A DNA stretch of 64,000 nt from assembly GCA_039812885.1 (NCBI GenBank), contig JBDIBI010000015.1, forward strand, positions 62,878 to 126,877, written 5' to 3'. Made by a program: the position numbers and the translations under genes. Origin of the DNA: Blastocatellia bacterium (GTDB taxonomy: Bacteria; Acidobacteriota; Blastocatellia; Chloracidobacteriales; JADJPF01). Under the pieces are notes generated by a model, which saw only the letters and a program-made list of their open reading frames with translations, searched no databases and was not told where the DNA came from. The first letter of the stretch is position 1; each line of letters begins with the position of its first letter. Shown here one piece after another: positions 55,904 to 60,843 of this stretch.

Positions 55904-56465
55904 CCCAAACTTTTTATTTGGTAAAACTGTCTAATGTTTTTGGGAGTAAAATACGACAAGACGTTATACAATATGCTTAAAACATCTATTTAGCTAACTG
56001 TTAGGTCTTTGAGAAATTAACAGTCTAAGTTTATTAAACTTTAAATTTGTTTTAATGCTCTAAAATTGTCGGAAACTAATTTTGCTAATATTAAATAAAA
56101 CTTAACATTCGCTAGTTAGATATAGTATAATTTCGGGGCTCAAACTAGTTTTTTAAAGAGAAAACTACTATATAACATTTTCTACTTTAAATTAAAGCTA
56201 GTATTTTCTACAGGATAGTACCTTCTGAAGCTTAATAAAGTAAGCTATAAGTTGGGATGATCTATGTTCTTATGGGTAGTCTTTAATCATAGGCTAACTC
56301 TTAATCATTTTGATGTGTTTTATTTTTGCACTTTTCTGTAGTTTTTGCTCTACTTTTTTAAGTGCAACATTTATCGTTACTTTTAGTAAGTATACTAACT
56401 CTCTAAAAGTTGGTCCAAACTCAAGAAAGCCATAACTAAAAAAGAAAGGAATAAGGAGGAAAAAA

Positions 56466-58499
56466 ATGCACAAGCTCAAAGCAGGTCTTTGTATACTGTT
56501 AGGCCTCTTATTATGTCCGTTATGGCCGTTGCCAACCCAAGCACAGACAACTGGAATAGTACCAAATGTAACTGTAGAACCAGGAGTATTCCAGACCAAT
56601 CAAACAACAAGTGCAATAATAAGTATAACTAACGTTGGTTCATCTGCAGCCATCGCTTTAGGAGATACTTTTACACTAACGTTTAATACTACATTTGGCA
56701 CGGTAGCATCTGTAGATCCTCAAGTTTTAGTTGCTTCTCCATCTGCTTCAGGATTTACTTCTAGTCAATTTACTACAAACTTTAACTCAACAACTCAACA
56801 AGTTGCCATTGCTTTTGTTGGAGCAGCCAAAAAGACTTTTGTAGCAGGAGATAGTTTCTCAGTAAAAGTAAACTTCACATCTGGCAGCAATGCTGGTCAA
56901 GGTTTAGTTTTATTAACTATTCAAGGTGCTGGTCAATATTTAGTTTTTGGTGATCGCCAAGAAGTTCCTATTGTTGCTTTTAACATTTCTGCGACTGGTG
57001 CGACTGGTGCGACTGGTGCGACTGGTGCGACTGGTGCGACTGGCGCTAATGGTGTTACTGGTGCTACTGGTGCTACTGGTGCTACTGGTGCTACTGGCCC
57101 AACTGGCCCAACTGGCGCTACTGGCGTTACTGGCCCAACTGGTGCGACTGGTGCGACTGGTGCTACTGGTGCTACTGGTGCGACTGGTGCTACTGGCCCA
57201 ACTGGTGCGACTGGTGCGACTGGTGCGACTGGTGCTACTGGTGCGACTGGTGCTACTGGTGCTACTGGTGCTACTGGTGCTACTGGCCCAACTGGCGCTA
57301 CTGGGGCTACTGGTGATACAGGTGCGACTGGTGCGACTGGCGCTACTGGTGCGACTGGTGCTACTGGCCCAACTGGTGCAACTGGTGCCACTGGTGCGAC
57401 TGGTGCGACTGGTGCGACTGGTGCGACTGGTGCGACTGGTGCGACTGGCCCAACTGGCGCGACTGGTGCTACTGGTGCGACTGGTGCTACTGGTGCGACT
57501 GGTGCTACTGGTGCTACTGGTGCTACTGGTGCTACTGGTGCTACTGGCCCAACTGGTGCGACTGGCCCAACTGGTGCGACTGGTGGTACTGGTAATACAG
57601 GTGCTACTGGCCCAACTGGCCCAACTGGCCCAACTGGCCCAACTGGCCCAACTGGCCCAACTGGTGCGACTGGTAATACAGGTGCAACTGGTGCTACTGG
57701 CCCAACTGGTCCAACTGGTGCAAATGGGACTGTTCCGCTACCATTTGTAGCAACAACCTCATTATCAGGAGGAACAACAAATCTATCAGCATTCTCAGTA
57801 ACTCAAACAAATGCTTCAGTGGCAGCAGTACAAGGTGTTTCCACAGGTTCAGGTGGCCTTGGTATAAGAGGTATTACTAGCAGTACAACAAATGGAATAG
57901 CCGTTGCTGGTATATCTAGTGGTGCTAAAACCACAGGCAATTTGGCTGGATTGTTTATGGGTAATGTTACTATTGTTGGCGGTGTTCTAACTCAAACAGG
58001 TAGTGCAGATGCTCTCATTATGGATCATCCATTAGATCCTGCTAATAAGTATTTAACACTTTCTTCTGTTGTTTCATCTCAAAACTTGAACATCTTCTCT
58101 GGCACTGTTGTTCTTGATCAAAACGGTGAAGCTTGGGTTCGTATGCCTGATTGGTTCGAATCTATTAATTCTGACTTCCGTTATCAACTCACTCCTATCG
58201 GAGCTTATGCAAAATTATATATTTCTGAAGAAGTATCTAATGGTAAGTTCAAGATAGCAGGAGGAAAAGCTGGAATGAAAGTTTCTTGGCAAGTTACTGC
58301 AATGAGAAAAGGTCCTGAAGTTGAATCAGTAGAAACTGAGCAACTCAAATCATCCAATGATCGTGGCCTATATCTCAATCCAGGAGCTTACGGTCAACCT
58401 ATTGAAAAGAGTATTATGTTTAAACAAGGTCCCGAAGTTATAGATTTCTTAACACATCAGCACCAAAATGCTGGTAGCTTCAAACCTGTTTCTAAATAA
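56466..58499 (+). CDS. Secreted collagen-like (Gly-X-Thr triple-helix repeat) protein, paralog 1
   Basis: Signal peptide ([14 protein letters not shown]). ~160-aa Asn/Thr/Ser-rich N-terminal domain. About 81 uninterrupted G-X-Y triplets ([15 protein letters not shown]). ~250-aa C-terminal globular domain. RBS aaggagg. Confidence 0.8.
56994..57727 (+). repeat. 9-bp tandem DNA repeat (GGTGCTACT-like, n~81) encoding the Gly-X-Thr region of paralog 1
   Basis: Directly visible period-9 repeat with variants ggtgcgact/ggcccaact. Confidence 0.85.
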
Positions 58500-58650
58500 T
58501 ATTTCTTCTCTTATACCCTATTGCCTTTGTTTGCAGGCAATAGGGTTAAAGAAATTTTAGTCCTTATGTCTTTTTAAGTTCAGAATTTATTAAAGGTTCC
58601 AAACTAAAAGAAAGCCATAACTAAAAAAGAAAGGAATAAGGAGGAAAAAA

Positions 58651-60843
58651 ATGCACAAGCTCAAAGCAGGTCTTTGTATACTGTTAGGCCTCTTATTATG
58701 TCCGTTATGGCCGTTGCCAACCCAAGCACAGACAACTGGAATAGTACCAAATGTAACTGTAGAACCAGGAGTATTCCAGACCAATCAAACAACAAGTGCA
58801 ATAATAAGTATAACTAACGTTGGTTCATCTGCAGCTATTTCCTTAGGAGATACTTTCACACTAACGTTTAATACTACATTTGGCACGGTAACATCTGTAG
58901 ATCCTCAAGTTTTAGTTGCTTCTCCATCTGCTTCAGGATTTACTTCTAGTCAATTTACTACGAGCTTCAACTCAACAAATCAACAAGTTGGTATCTCCTT
59001 CACAGGAGCAGCCAAAAAGACCTTTGTAGCAGGAGATAGTTTCTCAGTAAAAGTAAACTTCACATCTGGTAGCAATGCTGGTCAAGGTTTAGTTTTATTA
59101 ACTATTCAAGGTGCTGGTCAATATTTAGTTTTTGGTGATCGCCAAGAAGTTCCTATTGTTACTTTTGGTCTAAACCCAACTGGTGCTACTGGTGCTACTG
59201 GTGCTACTGGTGCTACTGGTGCTACTGGTGCTACTGGTGTTGCTCCAACTGGTCCAACTGGTGCTACTGGTGTGACTGGTGCTACTGGTGTGACTGGTAA
59301 TACTGGTAATACTGGTGCTACTGGCCCAACCGGTCCTACTGGCCCAACTGGTGCTACTGGTGTGACTGGTGTTACTGGTACGACAGGTGCTACTGGCAAC
59401 ACAGGTGCGACTGGCCCAACTGGTGCGACTGGCCCAACTGGCGCGACTGGTGACACAGGTGCGACTGGCGGAACAGGTGCGACTGGTCATACAGGTGCTA
59501 CAGGTGCTACTGGTCCAACTGGCGCGACTGGTGACACAGGTGCGACTGGCGGAACAGGTGCTACTGGTCATACAGGTGCGACTGGTGCTACTGGTCCAAC
59601 TGGTCCAACTGGTGCTACTGGTGATACAGGTGCGACTGGTGGAACAGGTGCTACTGGTAATACTGGTGCTACTGGTGCTACTGGCCCAACTGGCCCAACT
59701 GGCCCAACTGGTGCTACCGGTGTGACTGGTGTTACTGGTAATACTGGTAATACTGGTGCTACTGGCCCAACTGGCCCAACTGGCCCAACTGGTGCTACTG
59801 GTGCTACTGGTGCTACTGGTGCTACTGGTGCTACTGGTGCTACTGGCGCTAGTCCTACTGGCGCGACTGGTGCTACTGGCCCAACTGGTGCTACTGGTGC
59901 TACTGGTGCTACTGGTGCGACTGGTGCGACTGGTGTTGCTCCAACAGGTCCAACTGGTGCGACTGGTGCGACTGGTGGAACAGGCGCTACTGGTAATACT
60001 GGTGCTACAGGTGCTACTGGTCCAACGGGTCCAACGGGTCCAACGGGTCCTACAGGTGCAGTTGGTAGTACAGGAGTATTTTCACTACCGTTTATAGCAA
60101 CAACCTCATTATCAGCAGGAACAACAAATCCATCAGCATTCTCGATAACTCAAACAAATGCTTCAGTGGCAGCAGTACAAGGTGTTTCCACAGGTTCAGG
60201 TGGCCTTGGTATAAGAGGTATTACTAGCAGTACAACAAATGGAATAGCCGTTGCTGGTATATCTAGTGGTGCTAAAACCACAGGCAATTTGGCTGGATTG
60301 TTTATGGGTAATGTTACTATTGTTGGCGGTGTTCTAACTCAAACAGGTAGTGCAGATGCTCTCATTATGGATCATCCATTAGATCCTGCTAATAAGTATT
60401 TAACACTTTCTTCTGTTGTTTCATCTCAAAACTTGAACATCTTCTCTGGCACTGTTGTTCTTGATCAAAACGGTGAAGCTTGGGTTCGTATGCCTGATTG
60501 GTTCGAATCCATTAATACTAACTTCAGTTATCAAGTAACTGCTATTGGTAAAGAAGCAGAACTTTATATTGCACAAGAAGTAACCAATAACAAGTTCAAG
60601 ATAGCAGGAGGAAAAGCTGGAATGAAAGTTTCTTGGGAACTTACTGCGGAAAGAAGAGGACTAGGCTTAGAACCATTGGAAGCTGAAAAACTTAAACCAT
60701 CCAATGAACGTGGCCTATATCTCAACCCAGGAGCTTACGGTCAACCTATTGAAAAGAGTATTATGTTTAGCAACGATCCTTATGTTTTAGAATTTTTGAA
60801 ACAGCAGCATCAAAATGCTACTAGTCTTAAACCTAAATTTTAA
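58651..60843 (+). CDS. Secreted collagen-like (Gly-X-Thr triple-helix repeat) protein, paralog 2
   Basis: Same architecture as paralog 1 with near-identical N- and C-terminal domains. About 100 G-X-Y triplets, including GHT/GGT variants. The ~60-bp upstream region including the RBS is duplicated. Confidence 0.8.
59179..60075 (+). repeat. 9-bp tandem DNA repeat (n~100) encoding the Gly-X-Thr region of paralog 2
   Basis: Directly visible period-9 repeat. Confidence 0.85.

Follow-up and report, generated by a model that had tools for sequence, protein, structure and literature searches.

We analyzed a 64,000-nucleotide (nt) stretch of a Blastocatellia bacterium genome (contig JBDIBI010000015.1, assembly GCA_039812885.1), hereafter called the window, and focused on two adjacent genes, here named A and B, that encode collagen-like proteins. 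The two open reading frames (ORFs) lie in tandem on the plus strand, and each encodes a signal peptide, an N-terminal domain (N-domain), a collagen-like stalk of Gly-X-Y triplets and a C-terminal region (Table 1; coordinates are positions in the window). The guanine-plus-cytosine (GC) content is ~35% over the window and rises up to 45% across 56-60 kb; stalk A has 61% GC vs ~35% for the genome. As by-products, the repeat also yields overlapping ORFs in other frames and on the minus strand (PVAPV.., LVRLV..); the reading frame is fixed because the homologous N- and C-terminal domains sit in the same frame. The coding sequences of A and B are identical over the first 185 nt and 94% identical over codons 1-177; residues 1-177 are 93% identical, and the C-terminal 257 amino acids (aa) align without gaps at 83% identity. 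Together with the shared leader described below, these values bear out the preliminary description of the locus as a tandem duplication of a secreted protein built of an N-domain, a collagen stalk and a C-domain.

Table 1. Features of the tandem collagen-like genes A and B
Feature	Position	Strand	Description
Gene A leader	56412..56465	+	block GGTCCAAACT ... AAGCCATAACTAAAAA ... AAGGAGG; ribosome-binding site 56453-56459
Gene A	56466..58499	+	677 aa; signal peptide, N-domain, 82-triplet collagen stalk, C-terminal tip region; Pfam Collagen E 1e-35
Signal peptide of A	56466..56546	+	aa 1-27: MHKLK, hydrophobic core, TQA/Q (putative cleavage at the slash); read from the sequence
N-domain of A	56547..56996	+	aa 28-177 (150 aa), all-beta sandwich; proposed proximal base/attachment module
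Collagen stalk of A	56997..57734	+	aa 178-423, 82 uninterrupted triplets, ~71 nm if triple-helical
C-terminal region of A	57735..58496	+	aa 424-677: Gly/Ser/Thr-rich neck, beta-sandwich tip, helical tail
C-domain core	57990-58496	+	homologues P0001-P0266
Conserved beta-sandwich tip of A	58008-58361	+	about aa 515-632
Stem-loop after gene A, terminator-like	58509..58552	+	RNA fold -23.1 kcal/mol, z -5.3 vs shuffles
Gene B leader	58597..58650	+	copy of gene A leader
Gene B	58651..60843	+	730 aa; signal peptide and N-domain as in A, interrupted stalk, C-terminal tip region
Gene B signal peptide and N-domain	58651-59181	+	
Gene B collagen stalk	59182-60081	+	98 triplets
Gene B C-terminal tip region	60082-60840	+	
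Intrinsic-terminator-like hairpin after gene B	60867..60896	+	consensus scan: 13-pair stem then T-rich tail

The two genes are preceded by copies of one leader block, which are nearly identical over ~54 nt (from GGTCCAAACT/GTTCCAAACT) and fully identical over the final 43 nt before the ATG, as the preliminary description had noticed for the upstream region; the ribosome-binding site AAGGAGG lies 6 nt upstream of the ATG in both. A similar block precedes the closest relative, which was found in another genome (L004). The block probably serves as a promoter or as a 5' untranslated region. An Rfam scan of the leaders and intergenic regions gave no match, and a sigma-70 promoter scan returned 9 sites vs 8.3 expected and was uninformative. 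The stem-loop after gene A has a weak T-run and was therefore missed by the consensus terminator scan, by which the hairpin after gene B was detected; the latter folds as RNA at -22.1 kcal/mol (z -7.3 vs shuffles). Since a strong hairpin follows each gene and the leader is shared, we concluded that the unit of duplication was leader, gene and terminator.

The central runs differ in length and composition, in agreement with the preliminary description. Stalk A consists of 56 GAT and 17 GPT triplets and a few GVT, GNT, GDT, GGT and GAN, whereas stalk B (aa 178-477) is divided into four blocks of 7, 67, 9, and 15 triplets by three two-residue breaks (GVA-PT-G, GAS-PT-G, and GVA-PT-G, with the pattern G-x-x-x-x-G). 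The Y position is occupied by Thr in 79 of the 82 triplets of A (Asn in 2, Val in 1) and in 93 of the 98 triplets of B; the initial impression that every Y residue is Thr is thus right for ~95% of the triplets, but Thr is not exclusive and the helix of B is interrupted. Both proteins belong to the Pfam Collagen family (PF01391), scoring 121.6 bits for A and 125.6 bits for B (E 6e-37) vs the cut-off of 27.2, and Tandem Repeats Finder reported a 9-bp period with 81 and 95 copies. The stalk lengths were computed with a rise of 2.9 Å per residue (PMC8968730), by which stalk B would extend to ~87 nm if triple-helical. The counts of 82 and 98 triplets depend on the correctness of the assembly, and public short-read assemblies of this locus and of related ones break within the repeat. 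Thr is the commonest choice at Y in bacterial collagens generally (PMC8968730), and because of this general preference the G-X-T composition alone implies neither kinship with BclA, the Bacillus exosporium protein, nor glycosylation.

The signal peptide of A has a basic n-region, a 15-residue hydrophobic core and a small-residue c-region, and is most likely of the Sec type. An AlphaFold2 (AF2) prediction for the N-terminus places a helix at residues 2-15, with disorder in the stretch behind it. Within the signal peptide, the motif LLLCPLW (56502-56525 in A, 58687-58710 in B) does not vary across 6 aligned family members or 7 others, although the mature N-domain is only 50-65% identical among relatives; LLLCPLW may be a lineage-specific sorting signal. 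We also considered a lipoprotein and rejected it by eye, as the invariant Cys17 follows Leu-Leu-Leu (Leu at -1) and does not conform to the lipobox [LVI][ASTVI][GAS]C.

The N-domain was modeled with a cohesin/pilin-like fold. It has no match in Pfam, NCBIfam, or PHROGs, and no viral relatives were found. The N-domain of A contains six N-x-S/T sequons vs 2.2 expected from shuffles (p 0.006; p 0.006-0.04 for the window copies), and this abundance had been taken in the preliminary description as a possible sign of glycosylation. In seven homologues the enrichment is absent (1-5 sequons vs 2-3 expected, p 0.15-0.94), and only the site near aa 133-136 recurs among them. An N-glycosylated, sequon-rich surface protein was therefore rejected, the sequons being conserved neither in number nor in position; an alternation of N, T, and S on exposed beta-strands would suffice to explain them.

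The conserved domain at the C-terminus (C-domain) has no match in Pfam, NCBIfam, or PHROGs, and a sequence search of the PDB gave noise only. Its sequence nonetheless places it in a very large family. A word-indexed search gave 327 matches; at 50% identity the family comprises 9,830 clusters with E<=1e-3, 8,579 of them with E<=1e-10, and hundreds of proteins match at E 1e-40 to 1e-62. The family motif, over a domain of ~170 aa, reads IDHPLDPxNKYL..S.VES....N.Y.G...LD..GEA.V.LP.WFE.LN.DFRYQLT.IG...F.IAGG..G.KVSWQVT..R; both paralogs carry the invariant columns of this 'DHPLDP' family, and D, P, Y, G, N, R, and K positions are invariant in the core. No paper was found in a literature search for the motif DHPLDP. 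One family member from a JGI metagenome (P0001) is identical to the last 158 aa of B, and an exact look-up of protein A among public assemblies found none.

In every listed member the C-domain ends a few residues from the C-terminus, and in most of them it follows Gly-rich GVxGxSxSxxGxG repeats. Ten long homologues were scanned for what lies before the domain: Pfam Collagen was found in at least three (P0154, P0155, and P0208), shorter G-X-Y runs in four more, and YadA_head repeats in two (P0133 and P0160). Collagen and YadA heads are obligate trimers, which argues that the C-domain caps trimeric fibres; this is the best available evidence for trimerisation and is indirect. In another homologue (P0052) the C-domain is joined to an SLH-annotated N-terminal region.

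An AF2 model of the C-terminal region (60 sequences) has a beta-sandwich core with a predicted local distance difference test score (pLDDT) >90 over ~120 residues and a neck of low confidence, as expected if the neck folds only within the trimer. Foldseek matched the model best to the cyanophage Pam1 tailspike, the R2 pyocin fibre, the phage K64-1 depolymerase and the phi297 tailspike, all with weak E-values. The structures nearest to it belong to the distal, ligand-binding parts of tailspikes and fibres. Known receptor-binding tips that the domain resembles include those of the Pam1 tailspike (7eea), AP22 gp53 (4mtm) and the R2 pyocin fibre (6cl6). Independently of the AF2 model, tblastn against 50,697 phage genomes identified gene 19 of the Arthrobacter phages Sonali and Mufasa8, whose product carries the annotation minor tail protein and which lies three genes downstream of the tape measure; profile alignment by hhalign of the C-domain with this protein gave a probability of 98.7% (E 2.7e-16, 115 columns). 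Narrow exact patterns found the C-domain at 11 loci in 2.9 million viral contigs of IMG/VR. The carriers in these contigs are tail-fibre proteins situated within tail modules. In one of them (L018) a PHROG tail-fibre family matches the carrier protein as well, and the ORFs behind it match tail-fibre PHROGs; in another (L022) the carrier is followed by a tailspike-like ORF. Of the two folds that the preliminary description had raised for the C-domain, the phage-tail-fibre-like one is supported by the fold comparison, the phage tail protein homology and the viral contigs, whereas the C1q or BclA_C jelly-roll was not recovered in the window proteins. The great majority of the family comes from genome and metagenome data in general, and three cellular homologues on long contigs have ordinary chromosomal neighbours and no phage genes. 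We concluded that the domain is a tail-fibre-type tip in wide use among cellular secreted fibres.

Next, we examined the distribution of the N-domain. The host is an uncultured low-GC acidobacterium (Blastocatellia-like) from soil or groundwater. One housekeeping protein encoded in the window, HemB, has 76-85% identity to proteins from metagenome-assembled genomes (MAGs) labelled Acidobacteria, Acidobacteriota, or Blastocatellia. Among 5.8 billion proteins only four N-domain relatives were found, all partial and from Blastocatellia or unclassified MAGs. When 185,579 species genomes (GTDB) were scanned, seven loci turned up. They are spread over three MAGs (32-36% GC), each of which holds two or three paralogs; the MAGs are labelled 'Acidobacteria bacterium' (groundwater), 'Blastocatellia bacterium' and, in one case, 'uncultured Clostridia'. 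These seven relatives are 50-58% identical to the window N-domain, and all have the same signal peptide and N-domain followed by G-X-T/N/Q triplets. In six of the seven loci a contig end cuts the gene inside the repeat; the contigs of L001, L002, L004-L008, and L010 end within or just before it, and Logan contigs that contain the upstream neighbour seen in the window stop at the collagen gene. Because contigs break at the repeat, the family is systematically truncated in short-read assemblies and the repeat numbers given here cannot be cross-checked; in public data the family is under-counted for the same reason.

The only complete relative, a 594-aa protein from an Acidobacteria MAG (L009:9986-11770), shares the signal peptide and N-domain and has a stalk of GAT, GAQ, GVT, and GTQ triplets, but its C-terminal domain of ~144 aa is unrelated to the tip of A and B. 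It matches BclA_C over the full length (PF18573, E 2e-6, 28 bits, below the cut-off of 38) and C1q (PF00386, E 1.7e-3). By comparison with the window genes, we concluded that this lineage joins one base and stalk to tips of different origin. Such tip swapping may be likened to the cassette exchange in phage receptor-binding proteins.

The divergence between A and B is uneven along the genes. By the method of Nei and Gojobori, the synonymous rate (dS), nonsynonymous rate (dN) and their ratio (omega) are 0.11, 0.021, and 0.19 in the N-domain, which is thus under purifying selection. In residues 21-145 of the C-terminal region (neck and first half of the sandwich) the values are 0.01, 0.007, and 0.69, the last from only 3 differences, and in residues 146-257 (second half of the sandwich and tail) they are 0.43, 0.20, and 0.46. 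The C-terminal tails diverge as quoted in the preliminary description. The mosaic of dS values indicates gene conversion over the leader, signal peptide and proximal C-terminal region, with an older divergence kept in the stalk and the distal tip.

We favor, with moderate confidence, the reading that A and B are paralogous secreted subunits of homotrimeric collagen-stalked surface fibres in low-GC Acidobacteriota; in view of the architecture and homologies, the surface-fibre or adhesin role suggested in the preliminary description remains the best account of the locus. From the same architecture and homologies we infer how the fibres might be made. Each gene would form its own transcription unit, with its own conserved leader copy and its own terminator hairpin, and the product would be exported by Sec through the family-specific signal peptide. 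The C-terminal region would then trimerise and nucleate the collagen helix, which would zip from the C- to the N-terminus: C-terminal trimerisation has been shown for E. coli prophage collagen-like proteins (PMC3368898), and in collagens generally folding nucleates at the C-terminus (PMC11923368). The result would be a rigid stalk of ~71 nm in A and one of ~87 nm with three potential hinges in B. The cohesin/pilin-like N-domain would be the conserved proximal part that fastens the fibre to the cell envelope. The C-terminal beta-sandwich, which shares its family with phage tail-fibre tips, would bind a ligand, probably a glycan, at the distal end. As the paralogs are no longer alike in the length of the stalk, the outer half of the tip and the tail, the two fibres would most likely differ in reach and binding specificity.

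Several points weigh against this interpretation. The N-domain model is of medium confidence (pLDDT 66) and its fold class is generic. A helix rich in Gly-Ala-Thr might not be stable without modification. Acidobacteriota are diderm, and a Sec signal reaches only the periplasm; no route of outer-membrane export or anchoring was identified. Finally, positive selection on the tip was tested and not found, the omega value being 0.46 in the diverged half.

Among the alternatives, the one that survives best, and which we still regard as unlikely, is a purely structural matrix, sheath, or biofilm scaffold, in which the C-domain would be only a folding and trimerisation clamp, the N-domain would serve only lateral packing, and no specific ligand would be bound. 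Bacterial collagen-like proteins with roles in biofilm and adhesion are known (PMC8968730), omega is <1 even in the diverged half, and the very strong conservation of the C-domain core over ~9,800 clusters suits a module for folding or assembly better than a receptor-binding tip, which typically varies. These observations have to be balanced against the closest structures, which are distal ligand-binding domains, against the tip swap in L009, which suggests that the C-terminal module sets specificity, and against the pattern of paralog divergence, which falls on just the outer half of the tip, gene conversion having kept the remainder identical.

The fibre could also be oriented the other way round, the C-domain anchoring it to the envelope (for example to a glycan such as lipopolysaccharide or peptidoglycan) and the lineage-specific N-domain forming the exposed functional end. 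We consider this improbable. Phage fibres, BclA, and prophage collagen-like proteins all carry their globular C-terminal domain at the distal end, as the fold matches also indicate, and within the family the N-domain is constant and the C-domain exchanged, as expected of a base with variable tips. The reversed arrangement would, on the other hand, allow a widely conserved C-domain to recognize a widely conserved envelope component; it would agree with the pairing of the C-domain with an SLH-annotated region in P0052 and with the frequent use of cohesin- and MSCRAMM-like folds as the binding ends of adhesins.

The homology of the C-domain to phage minor tail and tail-fibre proteins, its resemblance to R-pyocin fibre tips and the collagen stalks known in prophage side tail fibres (PMC3368898) would all suit a third possibility, that A and B are phage-derived tail fibres, either prophage remnants or fibres of a tailocin or contractile injection system. 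This is very unlikely in our judgment. Both proteins carry a signal peptide, for which virion proteins would have no use because they assemble in the cytoplasm, and no capsid, tail, baseplate, integrase, or lysis genes were found in the flanks, the Pfam-annotated neighbours across the 64-kb window being cellular. Neither domain matches PHROGs, the cohesin/pilin-like N-domain has no viral relatives, and the three cellular C-domain homologues on long contigs lack a phage context. Membership in a phage or tailocin tail module was rejected on the cellular neighbours and the PHROG result; from the signal peptides, the neighbours, the absence of a PHROG match and the homologues without phage neighbours, we concluded that the genes are cellular.

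The least probable alternative, for which we see only a slight chance, is that of BclA-type glycoproteins forming a hair-like nap on a spore- or cyst-like outer layer with O-glycosylated Thr and a C1q-like C-terminal trimer, because the N-terminus is a Sec signal peptide without an exosporium-targeting motif, the host belongs to the Acidobacteriota, which are not known to form endospores, no glycosyltransferase is adjacent here or in L009, and Thr at Y is a general bacterial preference. What speaks for it is the N-domain/collagen/C-domain layout with GPT and GAT triplets as in BclA (PMC8968730) and the BclA_C/C1q-like C-terminus of L009, which has the same N-domain; judged by these matches, the BclA idea would fit L009 better than the window genes.

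If A and B are indeed subunits of secreted surface fibres, they might, more tentatively, be part of a dedicated modular fibre system that combines the leader, the LLLCPLW signal, the cohesin-like base and the G-X-Thr stalk with exchanged tips of unrelated origin. In such a system the scaffold would be kept uniform by gene conversion, phage-style cassette swapping would serve the cell's own surface recognition, and the tip of A and B would come from a large unnamed family that links phage fibres with collagen- and YadA-type fibres; we regard this extended picture as less likely than not. The Acidobacteriota are abundant yet little characterised as a phylum, and we know of no description of such surface appendages in them. 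Since surface proteins of the collagen-like type are already familiar from bacteria, no new principle is added here. What is new is the occurrence in this phylum, a cohesin-like base restricted to the lineage, a tip that can be placed in a large unnamed family found also in phage tail fibres, and evidence that tips are exchanged on a constant base and stalk. Neither Pfam nor NCBIfam has a model for the C-domain family, which phage tail fibres and cellular trimeric fibres share and which merits a definition of its own.

Upstream of gene A, the window encodes a response regulator of the PatA type (PatA_N or PATAN domain, 54305-55903, +) directly adjacent to it, an 823-aa WD40 protein (51522-53993, -) and a Ser/Thr kinase with AAA and TPR domains. 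The latter (47809-51492, -, with TPR repeats) is one of two giant Ser/Thr kinase and AAA_16 proteins of ~1,230-1,250 aa, the other being encoded at 23103-26843 (+). MarC, Lrp/AsnC, and oxidoreductases follow downstream of gene B. No secretion system or glycosyltransferase adjoins the genes here or at L004, L008, and L009, and no conserved neighbours were found among the loci of the relatives. The search for nearby glycosyltransferases proposed in the preliminary description thus gave nothing adjacent: among window ORFs of at least about 120-150 aa the only glycosyltransferase is a GT2 enzyme, which lies with an epimerase at 15.6-17.7 kb, ~40 kb from the collagen genes. It belongs to a cluster at 15579-19565 of a sugar-nucleotide epimerase/dehydratase, the GT2 glycosyltransferase and an asparagine-synthase-like amidotransferase.

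Two further observations concern other parts of the window. A 767-aa ORF at 30852-33155 (-) matches the major vault protein shoulder domain (PF11978, E 3e-33) and the vault repeat (PF17795); this vault-protein-like ORF, a eukaryotic-type domain in an acidobacterial genome, adjoins two large amidohydrolase genes. A Roadblock/LC7 protein (14200-14694, +) is followed by a 196-aa ORF without Pfam match (14764-15354, +), and the two could be an MglB/MglA-like polarity module.

We compared the window proteins with the known collagen-like systems. Prokaryotic collagen-like proteins vary in their C-terminal folds, and the Bcl proteins themselves carry C-terminal domains of different predicted folds (PMC8968730). 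As in Bacillus BclA and C. difficile BclA1-3, an N-domain is followed by a long Gly-X-Thr region and a globular C-terminal domain, and filaments of the BclA type are trimeric and project from the surface. The analogy with BclA drawn in the preliminary description is therefore sound for the overall layout and fails beyond it: the C-domain belongs to another fold family and gave no BclA_C (PF18573) assignment, a Sec signal peptide takes the place of the exosporium-targeting N-terminus, the host is an acidobacterium and not a spore-forming Firmicute, and G-X-Thr is unspecific. No glycosyltransferase is linked to the window genes, whereas C. difficile BclA3 is glycosylated by the glycosyltransferase SgtA (PMC7157674).

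The side-tail-fibre proteins EPclA/B of E. coli O157:H7 prophages (PMC3368898) likewise combine a collagen stalk with a C-terminal trimerisation or tip domain of the phage tail-fibre type, and a dumbbell-shaped trimer would be expected in both cases. The E. coli proteins are prophage-encoded, lack a signal peptide and have phage-fibre N-domains and a coiled coil; the window proteins are chromosomal and secreted, with a cohesin-like N-domain and a C-domain of another sequence family. The phage tips of Pam1, AP22 gp53, the R2 pyocin fibre, and Mufasa8 gp19 are parts of virions or tailocins, whereas in the window proteins a secreted collagen stalk bears the domain. Legionella Lcl and streptococcal Scl1/Scl2 are secreted trimeric collagen-like surface adhesins with a non-collagenous terminal domain, as A and B would be in the favored reading. 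Against their NCBIfam models (NF046116, NF038329, and NF038330) the window proteins score 95-123 bits vs cut-offs of 325-500, through the collagen repeat only; they have no LPXTG anchor, and their terminal domains are unrelated. Like BclA and the prophage side tail fibres, the window proteins would function through a trimeric collagen stalk that bears a globular domain at its distal end. We concluded that they fall outside both of these families and represent an ordinary, previously undescribed member of the prokaryotic collagen-like surface proteins.

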